Source: an uncultured Candidatus Saccharibacteria bacterium (GTDB lineage: Bacteria > Patescibacteriota > Saccharimonadia > Saccharimonadales > JAGQNJ01). From it: a DNA stretch of 64,000 nt. Below the pieces are notes generated by a model. That model was not told the DNA's origin. It saw only the letters and a program-made list of their open reading frames with translations, and made no database searches. Shown here piece by piece: positions 2,956-63,965 of the stretch. The translations under genes and the position numbers were made by a program. How positions within the stretch are numbered: position 1 is the stretch's first letter; every line of letters begins with the position of its first letter. The stretch lies in contig CAZBGZ010000003.1 of the NCBI GenBank assembly GCA_964491925.1, positions 22,234 to 86,233 on the forward strand, in the 5' to 3' direction.

Positions 2956-2964
2956 TGTTATAAT
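2956..2964 (+). promoter_or_regulatory. extended -10 promoter (TGtTATAAT) of pcrA
   Basis: TGTTATAAT lies 6 nt upstream of GTG 2971, with no Shine-Dalgarno sequence between them. Confidence 0.45.
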
Positions 2965-2970
2965 TGATTA

Positions 2971-5127
2971 GTGAACGACCTATTTGTTGGACTGAATGAC
3001 GAGCAAGCACGAGCGGTAAAAACTGTTGAAGGCCCATTGCTGATTTTGGCCGGGGCAGGTAGTGGAAAAACAAAAACCCTGACCCATCGTATCGCTCATA
3101 TTATAGATAGCAAACTGGCGACCCCATACAATATTTTGGCTGTAACCTTCACGAACAAGGCCGCGGGCGAAATGCGCCAACGCGTAGCTGAACTACTAGG
3201 CTTCGATTCTAATAATCGAAATTTTATGCCGTATATGGGGACCTTCCACAGTATCTGTGTGCGTTTGCTGCGCCAAGACGGTGACTTCGCCGAGATACCC
3301 AAGAACTTTGTTATTTTTGACGAACTAGACCGAACAAGTGTTATAAAGAAAATCAGCAAACAACTATCAATAGACGAAAAAGCTTTCCCGGCCAGATCTC
3401 TTGGGGGACTTATTAGTAGTGCAAAAAACGAACTGATAACCCCTAGCGCCTACGCTTCTATGGCTAACAGCCCGGCTCAGACTCACGCATCTAGAGTATT
3501 CCCACTTTATGAAAAAGCATTAAAAGATGCTGGCGCACTAGACTTTGATGATCTGATTGCAAAAGCTGTAAAGATGTTAGAGAAAAACCAAGAACTGCGA
3601 AAAAAATGGCAACAGCAATTTTCATACGTCATGATTGACGAGTACCAGGATACTAACGCTGCTCAGTACAAACTGATAAAATTACTAACCAACGAAAAAA
3701 ATAACATTGCAGTAGTCGGCGACGACTGGCAAAGCATATATTCTTGGCGTGGAGCAGATTTTCGGAATATTCTAAATTTTGAAAAAGATTATCCTGGAGT
3801 GACGGTTATCAAACTAGAACAAAACTATCGCAGCACCAAGTCAATTTTGGATGCCGCGCATACCGTAATTACAAAAAACCAACAACGCTCGGATAAAAAG
3901 CTCTGGACTGCAGCAGGGGAAGGTATGCCGGTTCAGGTTTTGCAGGCCAGTAGCGAGAGGTCTGAAGCTGAATCAATTGTGCGTAGAATAAGGAATACAG
4001 TGGACGCCAAGATCAGTGAGTATAAAGACTTCGCTGTTTTGTATCGTACCAACGCCCAAAGCCGATCGATTGAAGAAGTTTTTATTCATTATTCAATACC
4101 TTATCGCATAGTTGGTGGAGTCCGGTTCTACGATCGCAAAGAGATAAAAGACATCATGGCGTATTTGCGTCTAATGTATCAACCCCAGGATCTGAGTAGT
4201 TTTGATAGGATTGTTAATGTTCCATCCAGAGGCATAGGTGCAAAATCGTTACTAACATTTAACGATTGGCGAGAAGCATCGGGCATGACACTACAGGGTG
4301 CCATGCAACAAATCAATGACTGTACAGGCCTGACGCCGAAAGCAAAGTCAGCATTCTCGTCACTTGGTGATATGCTTGAATCCCTAAGAATCGTTATGTC
4401 TGACGAGAATGTTAGCAATGTTATAAACTCGGTTGTTAATCGTTTGGATTATCTTAACTACCTAGATGATGGGACCCCACAAGGAGAATCACGACAAGAA
4501 AACGTACGCGAACTGCTCAGCATGGCATTGCATTATCAAGATTTGGGCATGGACGGATTTTTAGAGGAAGTAGCACTGCTTAGCGATGTCGAAACAGGCA
4601 AACAGACCGGAGACAGTGTTACATTGATGACGCTTCACGGCGCAAAAGGACTAGAATTTCCAGTGGTATTTATGGTGGGTATGGAGGAAACTATCTTTCC
4701 TCATTCTCGTGCTTTATATGATAGTCAAGAAATGGAAGAGGAGCGCCGGCTATGTTATGTCGGCATGACCAGAGCCCGAGAAGAGCTATACATGCTATAC
4801 GCTACTGGCAGAATGTTGTACGGGGCCCCACAGCACAACCCACCCAGTCGCTTCATTAGTGATATTGCAGGGGACTTGATGCGCGAACAAAGCGCAGGAT
4901 TATCTTATGATTACAATAACCAGCCAGCCAGACCGCCACAACCAAAGATGGATTCGACTGCCCCTCGCTATGTACCGGATTTAGAGGAAGGCGATGGCGT
5001 AAAGCACCAATTGTTTGGAGTCGGCACGATAGTTGAGATGAACGGGGATATAGCTACTATCTACTTCAAAGGCAAAGGAACCAAGCAGCTAGATATCAGC
5101 ATTGCGCCACTGGAGAAGCTGGAATGA
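2971..5127 (+). CDS. pcrA: ATP-dependent DNA helicase PcrA/UvrD (SF1)
   Basis: 718 aa with Walker A AGAGSGKT, DEYQDT, QNYRST, VLYRTNAQSR and TLHGAKGLEFPVVF motifs. Confidence 0.9.
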   Translation: MNDLFVGLNDEQARAVKTVEGPLLILAGAGSGKTKTLTHRIAHIIDSKLATPYNILAVTFTNKAAGEMRQRVAELLGFDSNNRNFMPYMGTFHSICVRLLRQDGDFAEIPKNFVIFDELDRTSVIKKISKQLSIDEKAFPARSLGGLISSAKNELITPSAYASMANSPAQTHASRVFPLYEKALKDAGALDFDDLIAKAVKMLEKNQELRKKWQQQFSYVMIDEYQDTNAAQYKLIKLLTNEKNNIAVVGDDWQSIYSWRGADFRNILNFEKDYPGVTVIKLEQNYRSTKSILDAAHTVITKNQQRSDKKLWTAAGEGMPVQVLQASSERSEAESIVRRIRNTVDAKISEYKDFAVLYRTNAQSRSIEEVFIHYSIPYRIVGGVRFYDRKEIKDIMAYLRLMYQPQDLSSFDRIVNVPSRGIGAKSLLTFNDWREASGMTLQGAMQQINDCTGLTPKAKSAFSSLGDMLESLRIVMSDENVSNVINSVVNRLDYLNYLDDGTPQGESRQENVRELLSMALHYQDLGMDGFLEEVALLSDVETGKQTGDSVTLMTLHGAKGLEFPVVFMVGMEETIFPHSRALYDSQEMEEERRLCYVGMTRAREELYMLYATGRMLYGAPQHNPPSRFISDIAGDLMREQSAGLSYDYNNQPARPPQPKMDSTAPRYVPDLEEGDGVKHQLFGVGTIVEMNGDIATIYFKGKGTKQLDISIAPLEKLE

Positions 5128-17138: not shown

Positions 17139-17546
17139 TGGTGGAGCTGCCGGTTACTGCCACCGGGTCCGCGGGATTATCTTTGTTAGTCGTCTACAGG
17201 TATATTCTGCTTAGTTGTCTTAGAAACCTCGTCTTTAAACAGACAAAATAACGAAGAATCGCAATCCTAAAGTCTTAGTCCAACTTACGGATCGTAAGCT
17301 GGAAGCAACCCTGGAATATAGCGCGTCGCATCACTACCAAGATATCGTGATAGACACGGCTTAAATAATTAAACTTAAGCGGTTGTGGCTACAGGTGCCT
17401 CGAAAGCAGTTTTTAGGCTGTTTACGAAAGCAACTGATAGACCACGTAATTTAGAATTTGCATCTAAAAAAGTTTACCTATAACGCTGATAAGCGACCTG
17501 CTGATCTAACTGATAAAGTCCTACGTCGAGCTTGAAATTCAGCCCC
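17139..17546 (-). ncRNA. ssrA: tmRNA (ssrA), one-piece, CCA encoded
   Basis: The 5' end GGGGCTGAATTTCAAGCTCGACGTAGGAC matches the tmRNA 5' consensus (GGGGCUGA...UCGACG). The 3' end CAGCTCCACCA pairs with it, giving the G3:U alanine identity pair. The putative tag ORF at 17461-17375, after TTTTTTAGAT, reads ANSKLRGLSVAFVNSLKTAFEAPVATTA*. Confidence 0.8.
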
Positions 17547-22103: not shown

Positions 22104-22348
22104 AAATTAACTTTTTAATATTCAATTTACCTCTGAATGTGTTCGACCGGACACAAATTGGGGTAAATTTGCTATGTCTAGGGCTAGGGGAAGATAGCCG
22201 TTCCATCAGCCTGACGGTGGTGATATACTGATAAATGAGATGACAAACGCATATACGATACGAACCATGCGGATGATGCCCTAGGGCAGACTACTTTTAC
22301 TTTGATTTTTATATTTAATACAATTAATAACGAATACTTGAAAGACTA

Positions 22349-47810: not shown

Positions 47811-47907
47811 GGCGACTACCTCCTTGTTGATGAGTGTATTATGCTCCTGTGTGGTTATGGTTACAAGATGTATTGTGGTATAGTTGGTCGGCACATTAAT
47901 TAAATAC

Positions 47908-48028
47908 GTATCAAGAGTGCAGCGAGAGATCTAGCTCTATGACCTGCCGGCAACCACAACGAGCTAAAGGTTTATCCTGAACTTGTTGAAGGGTGCCCCT
48001 TCTAGCCTTTTAGCACAAGGGAAGATGT
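47908..48028 (+). promoter_or_regulatory. SAM-I (S-box) riboswitch aptamer upstream of metK
   Basis: Core elements read by eye: TATCAAGAG, GAGAGA, TGA, GGCAACC, GGGTGCC, and AGATG closing P1. P3 looks enlarged. Downstream, CTCCTT (48043-48048) can pair with the metK SD AAGGAG (48087-48092). Confidence 0.7.
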
Positions 48029-48100
48029 AGGAACACCGAAAACTCCTTATTCTTTCCCCGTATGTAGAACGGCAGGACTGATACGAAAGGAGTATTTTTT

Positions 48101-59878: not shown

Positions 59879-59898
59879 TGGTGTGCGAGAGAGGATTC
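59879..59898 (-). pseudogene. 20-nt fragment of the tRNA-Leu 3' end (T-loop to CCA)
   Basis: The plus strand TGGTGTGCGAGAGAGGATTC matches 60056-60075 at 19/20 positions. The sequence diverges completely beyond that. Confidence 0.55.
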
Positions 59899-59961
59899 CT
59901 TCATCTTCCGCTAGCGACAAAATTACTTTTAGTAATTGCGCATGCGGGCAAGTAAGTAAAA

Positions 59962-59987
59962 CGGAAACAGCCATTGGGCTGTTTCCG
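59962..59987 (-). terminator. 11-bp hairpin CGGAAACAGCC-CAAT-GGCTGTTTCCG followed by TTTT (minus strand), downstream of tRNA-Leu
   Basis: Read directly. The T-run follows the hairpin on the minus strand only. Confidence 0.55.
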
Positions 59988-60055
59988 ACCCGAGGGTTCG
60001 AACCTATTCGATCAAAATTCTTCATGGTCCTGCCAGAAAACAGAACAACGAAGAA

Positions 60056-60239: not shown

Positions 60240-60316
60240 GGGCGGTTAGCTCAGTTGGCTAGAGCACCTCGTTTACACCGAGGGGGTCACAGGTTCGAGT
60301 CCTGTACCGCCCACCA
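60240..60316 (+). tRNA. tRNA-Val(TAC), CCA encoded
   Basis: Manual cloverleaf. Acceptor GGGCGGT/ACCGCCC. Anticodon loop TTTACAC. T-arm ACAGG-TTCGAGT-CCTGT. Confidence 0.9.
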
Positions 60317-60368
60317 TTAACAATTTATTGCGCAAAACTATTGCGGCTCTTTAGCTCAGTTGGTAGAG
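60317..60368 (+). repeat. 52-bp direct repeat, copy 1 (28-nt spacer plus first 24 nt of tRNA-Phe)
   Basis: TTAACAATTTATTGCGCAAAACTATTGCGGCTCTTTAGCTCAGTTGGTAGAG is identical to 60424-60475. Confidence 0.9.
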
Positions 60369-60423
60369 TTTGAAGAGCATGTAAAATCTGGTTGGTCCCT
60401 AGGGACACAAAGAGACTGCACAT
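60345..60423 (+). pseudogene. decayed tRNA-Phe paralogue
   Basis: The acceptor/D-arm is identical to tRNA-Phe. CAGAGGC (the 5' anticodon stem) is deleted. The degenerate T-arm CTGGTTGGTCCCTAGGG is not followed by a matching acceptor 3' strand or CCA. Confidence 0.6.
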
Positions 60424-60475
60424 TTAACAATTTATTGCGCAAAACTATTGCGGCTCTTTAGCTCAGTTGGTAGAG
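60424..60475 (+). repeat. 52-bp direct repeat, copy 2
   Basis: Identical to 60317-60368. The period is 107 bp. Confidence 0.9.
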
Positions 60476-60527
60476 CAGAGGCTTGAAGAGCCTTGTGTCC
60501 CCGGTTCGAGTCCGGGAGGAGCCACCA
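60452..60527 (+). tRNA. tRNA-Phe(GAA), CCA encoded
   Basis: Manual cloverleaf. Acceptor GGCTCTT/AGGAGCC. Anticodon arm GAGGC-TTGAAGA-GCCTT. T-arm CCCGG-TTCGAGT-CCGGG. Confidence 0.9.
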
Positions 60528-60590
60528 ATATAAATATAGTGTGTCAGTATTTTCTGCTGACCATTTTTTGTTAGGGCACAAAGCCTTGTT

Positions 60591-60676
60591 GTCACGTCCC
60601 GCGACCCCGTAGCAACATCTTTGCAAACCAGTTTGCAAGAGTTGACTACCTTGCGAACTGCCACAGGCAATTCTCA
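60591..60676 (+). other. conserved structured module, copy A (unknown function)
   Basis: GTCACGTCCCGCGACCCCG, then 39 nt containing a hairpin, then CCTTGCGAAC and the hairpin GAACTGCC-ACA-GGCAATTC. Homologous, with identical spacing, to minus strand 63880-63797. Confidence 0.4.
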
Positions 60677-60704
60677 CCCGGTTCGAGTCCGGGAGGAGCC
60701 ACCA
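60677..60704 (+). pseudogene. exact duplicate of the tRNA-Phe 3' end (T-arm, acceptor strand, ACCA)
   Basis: CCCGGTTCGAGTCCGGGAGGAGCCACCA is identical to 60500-60527. Confidence 0.75.
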
Positions 60705-60719
60705 CCGTGAATACATTTC

Positions 60720-60750
60720 AAAACTCTCATAATTTTTGTGAGAGTTTTTT
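60720..60750 (+). terminator. intrinsic terminator after the tRNA-Phe mosaic
   Basis: CTCTCA-TAATTTTTG-TGAGAG followed by TTTTTT. Confidence 0.7.
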
Positions 60751-60793
60751 AATATACTACAAAAGCGGTTATGTTATACAATAAATATAAATC

Positions 60794-61594
60794 ATGAATA
60801 AAAATAATACAGAGGAACATTTAGAAGCATTTCTTTCTTATTATAGTGGGGATGTGTCAGCTGCAACGGCAGCCCTGCGCTCCTTCGCAATTAAAAAACA
60901 AAAACCCAAACACGAAGCAACTGGTCCAGTGGTTGTCTCGTTAGAAAATGTATCAAAAAAGTATAAATTAGGACGAGAAAATGTGAATGCTTTAAAAAAT
61001 GTTTCTTTAGAAATAAAACAAGGCGAGTTCGTTGCAGTTACAGGCTCTAGCGGTAGTGGCAAAAGTACGCTTTTGCAGTTAATCGGCGCGCTAGATAAAC
61101 CTAGTGAAGGACGAATCGTCGTCGACGGACAAGATATAAGCACGCTCAGTGACGGTAAATTGTCAGTTTTTCGCAACAAGACAGTTGGGTTTGTGTTTCA
61201 GTTTTTTTACCTACAGCCTTTCTTGGACATACAAACCAACATAGAGGTTCCCGCAATGTTTGCGCGAACAAAAAAATCAGAACGGATTGAAAGGTCCACA
61301 GAACTAGCAACGGCAGTAGGCTTAGTCGATAGGGTCGGCCATAAGCCAAAAGAACTTTCTGGTGGTCAGATGCAACGAGCAGCGATCGCCAGAGCGCTTC
61401 TTAACAAGCCAAAAATTTTACTAGCTGATGAGCCTACTGGTAATCTGGACAGCAAGAACGGCATGGCCATTATTGACTTGTTTGAAACTGCAAGGCAGAA
61501 ATTTGGAACTACTGTAATAATGGTTACTCATGATCCGAAGATTGCATACCATGCCGATAGGGAAATAGTGCTTCATGATGGAGAGATAGCATGA
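60794..61594 (+). CDS. ABC transporter ATP-binding protein (MacB/LolD/FtsE-like)
   Basis: 266 aa with Walker A GSSGSGKST, LSGGQMQR and LLADEPTGNLD, plus an N-terminal extension of about 45 aa. Confidence 0.85.
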   Translation: MNKNNTEEHLEAFLSYYSGDVSAATAALRSFAIKKQKPKHEATGPVVVSLENVSKKYKLGRENVNALKNVSLEIKQGEFVAVTGSSGSGKSTLLQLIGALDKPSEGRIVVDGQDISTLSDGKLSVFRNKTVGFVFQFFYLQPFLDIQTNIEVPAMFARTKKSERIERSTELATAVGLVDRVGHKPKELSGGQMQRAAIARALLNKPKILLADEPTGNLDSKNGMAIIDLFETARQKFGTTVIMVTHDPKIAYHADREIVLHDGEIA

Positions 61595-63528
61595 TTACAC
61601 TGAAAGATGCCAGTGTTTTGGCTGTGACAAAATTACGTACGCGTAAGGTCCGATTATCCGTGACGGTCATTATTTCTGGCCTATTGTTTTGTGTCCTGTC
61701 TACAACCTCATTTGTTGCACGAGGAGCCTTCAAGAGTTTGAATAGTTTTTCTCAAGAAGGTCTTGGTGACAGATTCTTGACTTCGGCCACCACAATGACA
61801 AATTTTGATGCTCCCTCAAATAAAGAGGTTGTTCGACGTGCCGAGGATTTGCAGAAAAAGATAATCACTCAAAAGAAACTAGAAGCAAAACGTCTTGGGA
61901 TCGAATATGATGATAAAACAGAACCCAGGGTCATAGACGAATTCGACGGTCAAAATGGCAAAGAAAAAGTCGTTAATTCGCAGACTGTTATCGGCCAAAA
62001 AGTAATTAACGATTATTTAACAGAGCATCCCCTGCCTGGGAAGGCTGATTTAGCCAAACTGTCGCGTTCATATAACCCGAGTAATTATTTCGAGATCACG
62101 CCTATCAATATGCCTATTTCTGTTTCAAGCGGTGTGCCATCCTCGCTACAGGTATTGAAAGGGGGCGAAGAGCGTTTTGATCAATCACAGCAGCCTCAGG
62201 ACCCATACACCGCAACCGGGCTTAGTTCGTTCACATCTTCTTGGAATTTGGCAGACCCTAGCCTACTCAGCCCGTTTCTTCTTCAGGGAAGTAGTCTGGC
62301 TATTAGCAAAGACGGAAGATTACCGGTTTTGGCGCCCTACACTGCGGCCGAAGAACTATTGGGTCTCCGGCCTCTGCCTAGCACAGCCGAATCAACAGAA
62401 AAAATTGAACGAATTAGGTTTGTCCGTGAAAAGATAAAAGACAATGCTTTTAGCGTGTGCTATCGCAACGGTGAATCAGTATCTATTATTCAAGATGTTG
62501 TTGCTACAAACTCTGAAATAGAAAAAAACAAAAATGATAAAACATACCAAAAGCCAGCTTTTATTAAATCGTTGCCATCGAAGCCTTGTGGAAATGTTGG
62601 CGTCAAGCAAGACACTAGGACATTCGGTGAGAAAACACTGGCATCTAAACAAGCACAGTTTGATAAAATTTTCGGCAAGGAAGACCCTAAAAGCCAAGTT
62701 TTTAACTTCAAAGTTGTTGGAATCGTGCCCGATCCACCTAGCAATGCCACGTCAGGTATACAGCAGCTACTGGGCGGGATACTGGGATCGACAATCGGTA
62801 GCGGTTGGTACTCGCCGACAGAAATTATTAAAAGTAACACAACCATAGGTTCAATCTTCAAACCCACTGGCCAGCCTAACGGTATGCCACATCAATACAT
62901 TGTAGAGTTTAATTCGGCAGACGATGCAAGAGGATTTATAGAGAATGGAAACTGCAAATTGGATTTTGGCACAGGCCTCAATGGGGAAGACCCTATGAAA
63001 CAGTGCGTAAAAGATGGTAAATATTTTTCCATCACACCCTTCGGCAGTAGTAGCTTGGCCCTGAACGATATCAAAAAGGGTTTTAGCAAGTACTTTAAAG
63101 ACGCTGCAATAGGTTTTGCAGTTATTGCATCGATAATAATGATGGGTACGGTAGGCCGAATTATTGCGGATAGTCGCCGCGAGACTGCAGTCTTTCGTGC
63201 AATCGGCGCCAAACGCAAAGACATATCGCAGATTTACATAGGGTATGTAATGTTGCTCTCAGGATTGATTGGGTCTTTTGCGTTAATAACAGGGTCGGTG
63301 ATAGCATTTATCGCTAATTCTAGGTGGACAGAAAACCTAACAGTTTCTGCTCTAATTAATTTCAATTCGCAAGATCTTACTAGAAAATTTACGATTTTCG
63401 CTCTTGACCCTAGGGACATATTCGTTCTGCTGGGAGTCATACTATTAGCAGGGCTTGTTAGCGCAGTGTTGCCTCTACTCAGCAATCTTCGACGTAACCC
63501 GATAAAAGATATGCGAGACGAAAACTAA
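61591..63528 (+). CDS. ABC transporter permease, FtsX/MacB-type with large extracytoplasmic domain
   Basis: 645 aa. TM1, then an extracytoplasmic region of about 450 aa, then a C-terminal FtsX domain (AVFRAIGAKRKDI plus 3 TM helices). There is a 4-nt overlap with the ATPase gene. Confidence 0.8.
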   Translation: MITLKDASVLAVTKLRTRKVRLSVTVIISGLLFCVLSTTSFVARGAFKSLNSFSQEGLGDRFLTSATTMTNFDAPSNKEVVRRAEDLQKKIITQKKLEAKRLGIEYDDKTEPRVIDEFDGQNGKEKVVNSQTVIGQKVINDYLTEHPLPGKADLAKLSRSYNPSNYFEITPINMPISVSSGVPSSLQVLKGGEERFDQSQQPQDPYTATGLSSFTSSWNLADPSLLSPFLLQGSSLAISKDGRLPVLAPYTAAEELLGLRPLPSTAESTEKIERIRFVREKIKDNAFSVCYRNGESVSIIQDVVATNSEIEKNKNDKTYQKPAFIKSLPSKPCGNVGVKQDTRTFGEKTLASKQAQFDKIFGKEDPKSQVFNFKVVGIVPDPPSNATSGIQQLLGGILGSTIGSGWYSPTEIIKSNTTIGSIFKPTGQPNGMPHQYIVEFNSADDARGFIENGNCKLDFGTGLNGEDPMKQCVKDGKYFSITPFGSSSLALNDIKKGFSKYFKDAAIGFAVIASIIMMGTVGRIIADSRRETAVFRAIGAKRKDISQIYIGYVMLLSGLIGSFALITGSVIAFIANSRWTENLTVSALINFNSQDLTRKFTIFALDPRDIFVLLGVILLAGLVSAVLPLLSNLRRNPIKDMRDEN

Positions 63529-63611
63529 AGTTCGCCTGTTGAGATAACAGTGTTGAGTTTGGTTACAAAACTCTTTATAATATTCCTCTGTTCAGCGAGA
63601 TAAGTATTTAC

Positions 63612-63639
63612 CAAATTCGAGAGAGGATTCTCGAATTTG
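63612..63639. repeat. 11-bp perfect inverted repeat CAAATTCGAGA-GAGGAT-TCTCGAATTTG containing a 13-mer of the tRNA-Leu T-arm
   Basis: CGAGAGAGGATTC (63618-63630) is identical to 60063-60075 and 59886-59898. It lies 4 nt upstream of tRNA-Gly. Confidence 0.5.
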
Positions 63640-63643
63640 AAAA

Positions 63644-63720
63644 GCGGGTGTAGCTCAGTTGTTTAGAGCGCGTCCTTGCCAAGGACGAGGCCAGGGGTTA
63701 GAGTCCCCTCACCCGCACCA
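63644..63720 (+). tRNA. tRNA-Gly(GCC), CCA encoded, non-canonical elbow (U19/A56)
   Basis: Manual cloverleaf. Acceptor GCGGGTG/CACCCGC. Anticodon arm CGTCC-TTGCCAA-GGACG. D-loop AGTTGTTTA. T-arm AGGGG-TTAGAGT-CCCCT. Confidence 0.85.
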
Positions 63721-63723
63721 ATC

Positions 63724-63750
63724 AAAAGACGTCCCGATGGGGCGTTTTTT
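63724..63750 (+). terminator. intrinsic terminator after tRNA-Gly
   Basis: ACGTCCC-GAT-GGGGCGT followed by TTTTTT, with an A-run upstream. The hairpin is weaker on the minus strand. Confidence 0.65.
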
Positions 63751-63796
63751 GATTGGTATGATGGGGTTCAAACTCCTGCCCAAAAGGCCAGGGCGA

Positions 63797-63880
63797 GAAC
63801 AGCCTTTTGGCTGTTCGCAAGGCAGCCATCCGGTGCAGCTGTGCTGCTAGCCGCGATGTTGCGGGGTCGCGGAACGTTAC
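63797..63880 (-). other. conserved structured module, copy B (unknown function), inside a GC-rich 63754-63900 segment
   Basis: The minus strand reads GTAACGTTCCGCGACCCCG, then 39 nt with a hairpin, then CCTTGCGAAC and the hairpin GAACAGCC-AAAA-GGCTGTTC. It is followed by another hairpin and a tail ending ACCA at 63754. Confidence 0.4.
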
Positions 63881-63965
63881 TAGAGTCCACATTACCCAAC
63901 CAAGCATAAGAATTATGCTCTCGATATTTGGTATTATTGTTATGCTATAATTTAGTGAATTAATT

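Follow-up and report, generated by a model that had tools for sequence, protein, structure and literature searches.

An uncatalogued family of small non-coding elements within tRNA gene copies of Saccharibacteria

The stretch of DNA considered here (the window, 64,000 nucleotides) comes from an uncultured Candidatus Saccharibacteria bacterium and corresponds to positions 22,234 to 86,233 of contig CAZBGZ010000003.1. Near one end of the window, beside the genes for tRNA-Phe, tRNA-Gly and an ABC transporter, lie two short structured modules, A and B. They are two members of a previously uncatalogued family of small non-coding elements, termed E in this report.

Two tRNA units in the window

Copies A and B share two sequence blocks, as had been described in the initial annotation, which was made from the sequence alone. 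Block 1 (CCGCGACCCCG) is found at 60599-60609 on the plus strand and at 63862-63872 on the minus strand, the sole two matches in the window at one mismatch or fewer, with 0.34 expected by chance. Block 2 (CCTTGCGAAC) lies at 60649-60658 (plus) and 63813-63822 (minus), at an offset from block 1 of exactly 50 nt in both copies. The hairpins GAACTGCC/GGCAATTC and GAACAGCC/GGCTGTTC are likewise present, including a compensatory T:A to A:T swap, and all of these details are where that annotation had placed them. A covariance model of E, built from an alignment of 54 copies (copy A and 53 relatives), matched the window only twice, with E-values of 3e-22 for copy A and 8.1e-21 for copy B. The likeness of the two modules is far above chance. 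The features of the region, with tRNA genes as called by ARAGORN and Rfam, are the following.

60591-60676, minus strand: E copy A, reading TGAGAATTGCC…GGGACGTGAC on the minus strand, with hairpins P1, P2 and P3; model match at 60579-60688 (minus), 94.4 bits
63794-63880, plus strand: E copy B, reading CGAGAACAGCC…GGAACGTTAC on the plus strand; model match at 63782-63892 (plus), 88.7 bits
60452-60527, plus strand: intact tRNA-Phe(GAA), parent gene of unit A (ARAGORN, Rfam)
60543-60571, plus strand: terminator hairpin and T-run of tRNA-Phe (terminator scan)
60677-60704, plus strand: duplicate of tRNA-Phe positions 49-76 (T-arm, 3' strand of the acceptor, ACCA), abutting copy A; 28/28 identical to 60500-60527 (repeat D1)
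60712-60756, unstranded: terminator-like inverted repeat, then a T-run, downstream of the tRNA-Phe fragment (I10; 21-nt arms, 81% complementary)
63644-63720, plus strand: intact tRNA-Gly(GCC), parent gene of unit B (ARAGORN, Rfam)
63723-63752, unstranded: bidirectional terminator hairpin (A-tract, stem, T-tract) after tRNA-Gly (I11, 89% complementary; sequence inspection)
63754-63781, plus strand: antisense, degenerate 3' part of tRNA-Gly (TGGT…); aligned locally with reverse-complemented tRNA-Gly, 17/23 identical over -9 to -31 as counted from the 3' end
63786-63793, plus strand: short sense piece of tRNA-Gly, positions 45-52 (GGCCAGGG), directly 5' of copy B; folds back on the end of the antisense piece as a hairpin
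63881-63902, plus strand: degenerate sense 3' end of tRNA-Gly (remainder of the T-loop to CCA, positions 55-76), directly 3' of copy B (repeat D5, 71% over 31 nt; intact in locus L021)
59899-59988, minus strand: module C, downstream of tRNA-Leu(GAG), an E-like insert that has diverged or decayed, with a P1-like hairpin GGAAACAGCC/GGCUGUUUCC; 10.5 bits with filters off
59879-59898, minus strand: second copy of the 3' end of tRNA-Leu(GAG), beside module C (direct repeat D3)
60312-60368, plus strand: duplicate of the Val-Phe spacer and tRNA-Phe positions 1-24, with no E present (repeat D2, 96% over 57 nt)

Each nearby tRNA (Phe, Leu(GAG) and Gly) has a copy of its own 3' end 150-180 nt farther on, so that the modules lie between a tRNA and a fragment of the same tRNA. 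The ACCA tails that had been reported at the ends of both modules do exist, at 60701-60704 (plus) and 63757-63754 (minus), each beside an inverted repeat (I10 and I11). They are, however, copies of tRNA 3' ends and not termini of an element RNA. In unit A the ACCA belongs to the direct duplicate of tRNA-Phe 49-76, which also contains the perfect tRNA-Phe T-arm seen previously; in unit B it belongs to the degenerate antisense 3' part of tRNA-Gly, mirrored across the terminator. The rise in GC content at copy B was confirmed (0.565 at 63700-63899, against a background of about 0.42). The degenerate tRNA-Gly 3' fragment that follows copy B had been missed.

Unit B consists of tRNA-Gly, the bidirectional terminator, the antisense piece, sense positions 45-52, E and the degenerate positions 55-76, and is a typical unit of the family. 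Its counterpart was found at the same tRNA-Gly position in L021 (L-numbers denote fetched relative loci), on a contig that begins at the tRNA and holds an intact tRNA fragment. Unit A lies behind tRNA-Phe and its terminator. Here the element is inverted and abuts the perfect tRNA-Phe 49-76 copy, which makes unit A one of only two cases of opposite orientation, an arrangement that inversion between the two tRNA pieces, antisense and sense, could have produced. The closest relative of copy A is the L013 copy, at tRNA-Leu(tag) of a different genome, and the P2 regions of these two match at 36/39 positions. Copies A and B are not recent duplicates of each other; their P2 regions are of different, unrelated subtypes, and the two copies represent different subfamilies.

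The tRNA-Leu hairpin that had been likened to copy B is part of a third unit, whose match to the model is weak. The layout of module C is the same as that of the other units, and a type-2 E was found at the same position after tRNA-Leu(GAG) in L026; at 10.5 bits the module itself is too weak to be called a member of the family. The D2 duplicate, upstream of the intact tRNA-Phe, ends at G24, a position that serves as an E site in other genomes. It is followed by a T, by tRNA-Phe positions 32-40 and by the perfect palindrome GTCCCTAGGGAC (60395-60406). The segment 60312-60418 could be the footprint of a lost element.

Fold, sites and variants of the E family

The family was searched for by scanning one genome per species for stretches with both blocks, which returned at least 119 of them. 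Relative loci, mostly stretches of about 8 kb, were fetched to a total of about 0.88 Mb. The initial annotation had proposed a search for further copies in relatives and a comparison with Rfam; the former gave at least 100 model matches in the fetched loci, often 2-4 per 8 kb, and the latter no known family. Low-GC matches of the scan that carry E are nearly all from Saccharibacteria metagenome-assembled genomes (MAGs) and represent dozens of genomes. An E copy reads 5'-TGAGAAC…CGTGAC-3' and is about 87 nt long in its common form, 86-87 nt in the window, and about 33 of its nucleotides are near-invariant across copies. Variants carry additional peripheral hairpins: type 2 has an additional hairpin in the P3 loop, and in the form found in an Elusimicrobiota MAG both P1 and P3 are longer.

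RNAalifold predicted three helices, P1, P2 and P3, that are joined by invariant nucleotides. P1 has an invariant base (GAGAAC/GUUCGC) with one A.G mismatch, P2 is a long variable hairpin and P3 is GGUCGCG-GAA-CGUGACC, with a G.U pair that is present in 54/54 copies. Double compensatory changes were observed in 19/32 pairs. Paired cells reach 96.4% compared with 82.0% in shuffles (a level attained by 0/500 shuffles), cells with double changes number 216 compared with 55.9 in shuffles, and slid controls pair at only 25-41%. Covariation in relatives, which had also been proposed as a check, thus supports all three helices. Copies at the same position of tRNA-Lys in L005 and L009 differ by a compensatory A:U to G:C change. 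Outside the invariant P3 pair, 29 G.U pairs were counted compared with 8 A.C mismatches, an excess that identifies the folding strand as minus for copy A and plus for copy B. The structure is therefore carried by the reverse complement of the strand on which it had first been read, and the CGCGA/TTGCG pairing suggested between the two blocks falls outside the covariation-supported fold.

Rfam 15, with its models of self-cleaving ribozymes and group I/II introns among others, gave no match over copy A or B at gathering thresholds, nor at E<=10 on the window region, in agreement with the earlier view that the modules do not fit the signal recognition particle RNA, 6S, RNase P or tmRNA. There was also no Rfam match on L092, a consensus-like copy, or on L053, the variant from Elusimicrobiota. 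The only Rfam matches nearby are weak and miRNA-like and fall on the tRNA-terminator-antisense palindrome. A domain of tRNA or tmRNA type was rejected: only four intact tRNAs are called by ARAGORN and Rfam, and the antisense piece, taken as a would-be 5' acceptor strand, has an identity of just 0.45-0.71 at positions 66-72, its least conserved part. The open-access full-text literature yielded nothing on E, the only related entry being group I introns in Patescibacteria tRNAs.

The link to tRNA genes was examined with 82 element cores. A tRNA lies within 400 nt on the same strand in 61 cases (upstream of the core in 42 and downstream in 19) and on the opposite strand in 2; for the remaining 19/82 cores no tRNA was called, and several of these are near the edge of a contig or locus. 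The folding strand is thus the tRNA sense strand in 61/63 cases. The ends of E are fixed. The element is preceded by G and replaces 2 nt at unpaired positions of the cloverleaf, most commonly T-loop 54/55, where G53 is the last nucleotide of the sense piece and C56 the first of the right flank (about 36/42 downstream units). The right flank then extends to CCA, sometimes with the same terminator. Other sites are 25/26 after the D-stem (Gly, Leu, Lys, Ser, Gln, Phe), the D-loop (Glu) and the position after 37 (Leu, Pro; range 37-39). At these other sites an intact gene lies downstream and the 5' half is duplicated, sometimes together with a -10 box. In all, E was found in four classes of site and in about 20 different tRNAs.

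The usual order of a unit is intact tRNA, terminator, antisense piece (about 76 to 44), sense 44-53, E, 56-76 and terminator, and the mirror-image arrangement occurs upstream of a gene. The tRNA copy that bears E is almost always truncated or decayed, with an intact paralogue adjoining. In downstream units the antisense copy matches the local tRNA and its T-loop is uninterrupted. It is best conserved at ACCA, the T-loop and 44-52, and worst at the acceptor and the 3' strand of the T-stem. The antisense and sense pieces are often joined as a palindrome without a spacer. The median antisense score is 23 behind tRNAs that are then followed by E, compared with 14 otherwise. In L056 the element sits inverted in the sense copy, within the antisense T-arm hairpin, which hints at a DNA hairpin as the target.

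Two models were rejected. Simple inversion by recombination between antisense and sense pieces can account for copy A and leaves L056 unexplained. For the antisense piece, twin priming and tRNA-primed reverse transcription were considered as RNA-mediated models; they do not fit antisense copies without E or 5' duplications that include the -10 box.

Single loci have additional features. Upstream of three tRNA-Leu genes (L055, L032, L054), the E-bearing copies have E, then CAAGTCC, a shared TATAAT…TTGAACC and the intact tRNA; the -10-like box there may be the promoter of the intact tRNA-Leu gene. In the Elusimicrobiota MAG BIN6, tRNA-Gly(CCC) of L053 (2540-2862) has behind it a tandem array of its own 3' end (GGGTTCGATTCCCATCGCCCGCT), three to four copies with a spacer of 33 nt, and L040 (7310-7577) has two E-like elements in head-to-tail order that are not separated by any tRNA piece. 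Dead tRNA 3' fragments beyond E carry extra hairpin inserts of 28 nt in L105 (4122-4175) and about 44 nt in L088 (around 2640-2690), placed between the 3' strand of the T-stem and the acceptor strand.

A second insert family, F2, is unrelated to E. It is about 75 nt long (GCGTAGYGCAG…GAAAAAGTGTTTACATTTTTTC…AGCGGAGGAG…GGCGAT) and was found in L023 (behind tRNA-Arg-tcg, 3144-3220, minus strand), L101, L117, L019, L060 and L077; it was not found in the window. The insertion point of F2 is in the T-loop of a spare 3' copy of a tRNA, between positions 57 and 58, and in L077 F2 directly follows E in one T-loop. Its units have the same sense-antisense-sense architecture as those of E, so the phenomenon is broader than one element.

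Mobile element, small RNA or integration scar

The best explanation found for E is that of a non-autonomous insertion element targeting tRNA genes, most likely a small mobile parasite; it is put forward tentatively, with slightly less than even confidence. A trans-acting factor would recognise the conserved fold of E, and the target would be recognised in a folded, single-stranded form. Insertion would be coupled to a local duplication of fold-back type in which one tRNA stays intact, or would survive only together with it. Later spread, and the exchange of P2 between tRNA loci and between genomes, would proceed by recombination through the conserved tRNA flanks. Several signs of mobility were observed. 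Genomes differ in the P2 subtype present at one and the same tRNA, and one P2 subtype occurs at different tRNAs. The presence or absence of E differs between the window and the syntenic cluster of L026 (Leu(GAG), Val, Phe, Gly). Double insertions were found in the dead copies of L054 and L081.

A number of observations weigh against a mobile parasite. No mobilising enzyme, no circular or excised form and no orthologous pair of empty and filled sites was found. E has neither terminal inverted repeats nor a target-site duplication and therefore matches none of the known transposition chemistries. Orientation is tied much more closely to the tRNA (61:2) than to GC skew, for which the bias is weak (52:30): in 52/82 cases the strand that folds is G-rich within its 8-kb locus, local skew being a weak proxy for the direction of replication. 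This difference would argue against a simple model of single-stranded DNA on the lagging strand. The duplications include promoter sequence (L039, L088), which argues against a purely RNA-mediated route, and no tested model explains the sense-antisense-sense origin. A functional RNA would be expected to have such near-invariant nucleotides, a compensatory change like that between L005 and L009 and expansions of peripheral hairpins, and these features would also fit a non-coding RNA of benefit to the host.

Such an RNA is the alternative that survives best, and it is considered rather unlikely. E would be a host-beneficial small RNA (a ribozyme, or a protein-binding or regulatory RNA) that is co-transcribed or read through with the tRNA; its promoter, processing sites and terminator would come from the spare tRNA fragments, and local duplication and gene conversion would give rise to new copies. 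In favour of this reading, the strand which folds is the sense strand of the tRNA in 61/63 cases, and the helices covary around about 33 invariant nucleotides and one invariant G.U. Variable peripheral hairpins are set on a constant core, as in type 2 and the Elusimicrobiota variant. The core also stays intact while the tRNA flanks decay, as in copy B compared with L021 (flank 71%, element about 93%), and the A:U to G:C change between L005 and L009 is compensatory at one and the same tRNA-Lys position. In the commonest arrangement, however, a terminator stands between the tRNA and E. Two elements may occupy one dead tRNA copy, and a T-loop with E may also contain an unrelated insert. Related genomes differ in copy number and location, and module C looks decayed.

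Less probable still, and judged unlikely, are miniature integrative elements or scars made and moved by tyrosine integrases specific for tRNA loops, comparable to cis-mobilizable elements (CIMEs), with E as a conserved arm beside the attachment site. The initial annotation had offered this reading as well; of the features of the units it accounts for the duplicated tRNA ends alone. Direct repeats of tRNA ends (the 3' end, or the 5' part with its promoter) flank the inserts in the manner of attL and attR, are 10-62 nt long and are identical in many loci (21/21), as in att scars and CIMEs. The tandem tRNA-Gly 3' fragments of L053 accompany E. In L039 (3070-4543) two copies of the promoter and the 5' part of tRNA-Leu(tag) adjoin each other. 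E comes after the first (positions 1-37), and an island whose first gene encodes a tyrosine integrase (ORF 3428-4543, minus strand, motif LGHKSVTTTLQVYTH) comes after the second (1 to about 40), so that the E unit and the integrase element each follow a copy ending in the anticodon loop; the 3' half of tRNA-Leu(tag) was not found within this 8-kb locus. That integrase nevertheless adjoins a separate tRNA copy. All-against-all clustering of 671 open reading frames (ORFs) from 84 loci gave housekeeping families only, with no recombinase or integrase cluster. E lies inside the loop, between G53 and C56, and not beside an intact core. The same fixed ends occur at four tRNA sites, which is not expected from the specificity of one integrase. 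Strand-specific covariation of RNA type is unexpected for double-stranded arm sites, and an antisense tRNA piece is no feature of att sites.

It is very improbable that E is a present or recent tRNA intron of a new type, its copies being genes or retired genes. The sites of E are unpaired cloverleaf positions and include 37/38. One locus, L031, has a near-complete host gene, the only one found: a full-length tRNA-Pro(GGG)-like gene (2960-3140) with a perfect 7-bp acceptor stem (CAGGGTG/CACCCTG) and E after G37, with no other tRNA within 8 kb. Its T-loop is also disrupted, by a separate 26-nt hairpin insert, and ARAGORN called no tRNA across the whole 8-kb locus. (The L031 contig is labelled Burkholderiaceae and looks Saccharibacteria-like.) When the flanks of the 82 copies were rejoined, with 66 junction variants each, ARAGORN recovered no genuine tRNA; the sole match, L055, is an artefact of boundary parsing. 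Nearly every copy is truncated and adjoined by an intact paralogue. A group I intron, which would have a P3-P9 core and lie at 35/36 or 37/38 of a functional gene, was rejected separately: E is 86-87 nt, has no Rfam intron match and lies mostly at 54/55.

The third earlier proposal, that A and B are inverted repeats (I2, I6) bounding a mobile or invertible 3-kb cassette with the ABC transporter and tRNA-Gly, is scarcely credible: the copies are indeed inverted and 3.1 kb apart, but each is part of its own tRNA unit (Phe, Gly) with unrelated P2 subtypes, units elsewhere occur singly at many tRNAs (that of B at tRNA-Gly in L021), and the genes between are an ordinary ABC_tran/FtsX pair with no recombinase. 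The inverted arrangement around the ABC-transporter genes is coincidental. Pfam matches of the window neighbours are SBP_bac_5, an FAD oxidase, ABC_tran and FtsX. An identical permease was found in public contigs only in L122 (a Logan contig of 3202 nt, corresponding to about 60472-63673 of the window). This contig ends inside tRNA-Phe and tRNA-Gly, which suggests that assemblies break at the repeated tRNA pieces.

The first proposal of the initial annotation, an undescribed family linked to tRNA genes, stands in that E is real, widespread, tRNA-linked and absent from Rfam 15; the strand is the opposite one and the ACCA ends are fragments of tRNA genes. Phage carriage of E was looked for in 2.9 million IMG/VR contigs with the block pattern. 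There were 2 pattern matches, neither of them matched by the model; the one that was inspected (L120) is high-GC coding sequence, and both look like chance.

Known systems, implications and other observations

Small structured repeats that insert into genes are known in bacteria, such as the Rickettsia palindromic elements, the REP/BIME repeats, the Correia elements and the miniature inverted-repeat transposable elements (MITEs). E resembles them in being about 100 nt, non-coding, multi-copy, hairpin-forming, lineage-restricted and possible inside RNA genes. It differs from them in its strict tRNA-loop target and orientation, its three covarying helices with invariant joiners and the sense-antisense-sense duplication of its target. 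A MITE was rejected in particular, since the ends TGAGAAC/CGTGAC are not inverted repeats and the target loses 2 nt without a duplication. Palindrome-associated transposable elements (PATEs) are miniatures derived from IS200/IS605 and moved by HUH single-strand transposases. Like E, they have no inverted repeats and no target duplication, carry strand-specific hairpins at or near their ends and insert in one orientation. Unlike PATEs, E has its hairpins at the very ends, its orientation follows the tRNA and there is no fixed left target motif of 4-5 nt: left flanks vary (GGAGG, GTGGG, TAGAG, GACG, TAACG, TTAGG) and only the final G is constant, so that a fixed IS200/IS605 target motif was rejected. 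No TnpA was found near E. Integron attC sites, serine recombinases, IS91/Helitron, hammerhead and hairpin ribozymes and group II boundaries were compared by eye at the junctions, and none fits.

Islands moved by tyrosine integrases leave duplications of att sites in tRNA genes, including CIMEs and tycheposon arrays. E units are similar in that direct repeats of tRNA parts flank extra DNA beside an intact tRNA and may form tandem arrays; they differ in an insert of only about 150-260 bp, the lack of an integrase, the interruption of the loop itself and the antisense tRNA copy. The mobile tRNA introns of Thermoproteales, which are archaea, occupy non-canonical positions in functional genes and are spliced by EndA at a bulge-helix-bulge, a splicing system that is not known from bacteria. 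E shares with these introns short non-coding inserts in the D-loop, at 25/26, at 37/38 and in the T-loop of many tRNAs, sometimes more than one per gene. In contrast to them, its host copy is defective, an intact paralogue adjoins and no bulge-helix-bulge is evident. The group I introns of Patescibacteria tRNAs are at least 200 nt, match Rfam, are self-splicing and lie in the anticodon loop of functional genes (PMC13011429). They are found in the same phylum and also have tRNA host genes that are hidden from tRNA finders, whereas E, at about 87 nt, is without a match in Rfam and is found in dead copies. E fails a defining feature of each known system with which it was compared.

E and F2 might together represent a new class of small structured insertion elements that recognise the folded cloverleaf of tRNA or tDNA, enter its loops with fixed ends and cause a sense-antisense-sense triplication that spares one working gene. 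Another novel reading would be an RNA of a new, ribozyme-like kind for which the spare tRNA fragments serve as carriers. Both readings would lie outside the known chemistries of transposons, introns and integrases, and the proposal is regarded as doubtful.

The genomes of Saccharibacteria are roughly 1 Mb, and most of their tRNA genes are thought to be single-copy. That many tRNA loci carry units, in places several per 8 kb, is an unexpected load for genomes of this size. If E is mobile, it would offer a route by which a parasite enters essential RNA genes without killing the host, and may point to a new enzyme or RNA activity. If E is a host RNA, it would be a conserved new RNA class in a phylum whose RNA biology is little known. 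In either case, the units create tRNA fragments, long palindromes and repeats that break assemblies and can mislead the annotation of tRNAs, islands and prophages.

Other RNA features were observed in passing. The window also holds a standard tmRNA gene (17139-17546, minus strand, 64.4 bits), with no E copy near it. L018, L114 and L031 share a common segment (…GACAAAATGTATTCCATTTTGCC…GAGAAAACCGTAGG…GTCTC) upstream of tRNA-Met or tRNA-Pro, and this segment may represent the 3' portion of a further small RNA gene. A SAM-I riboswitch is located in the window at 47905-48031 on the plus strand (46.9 bits).

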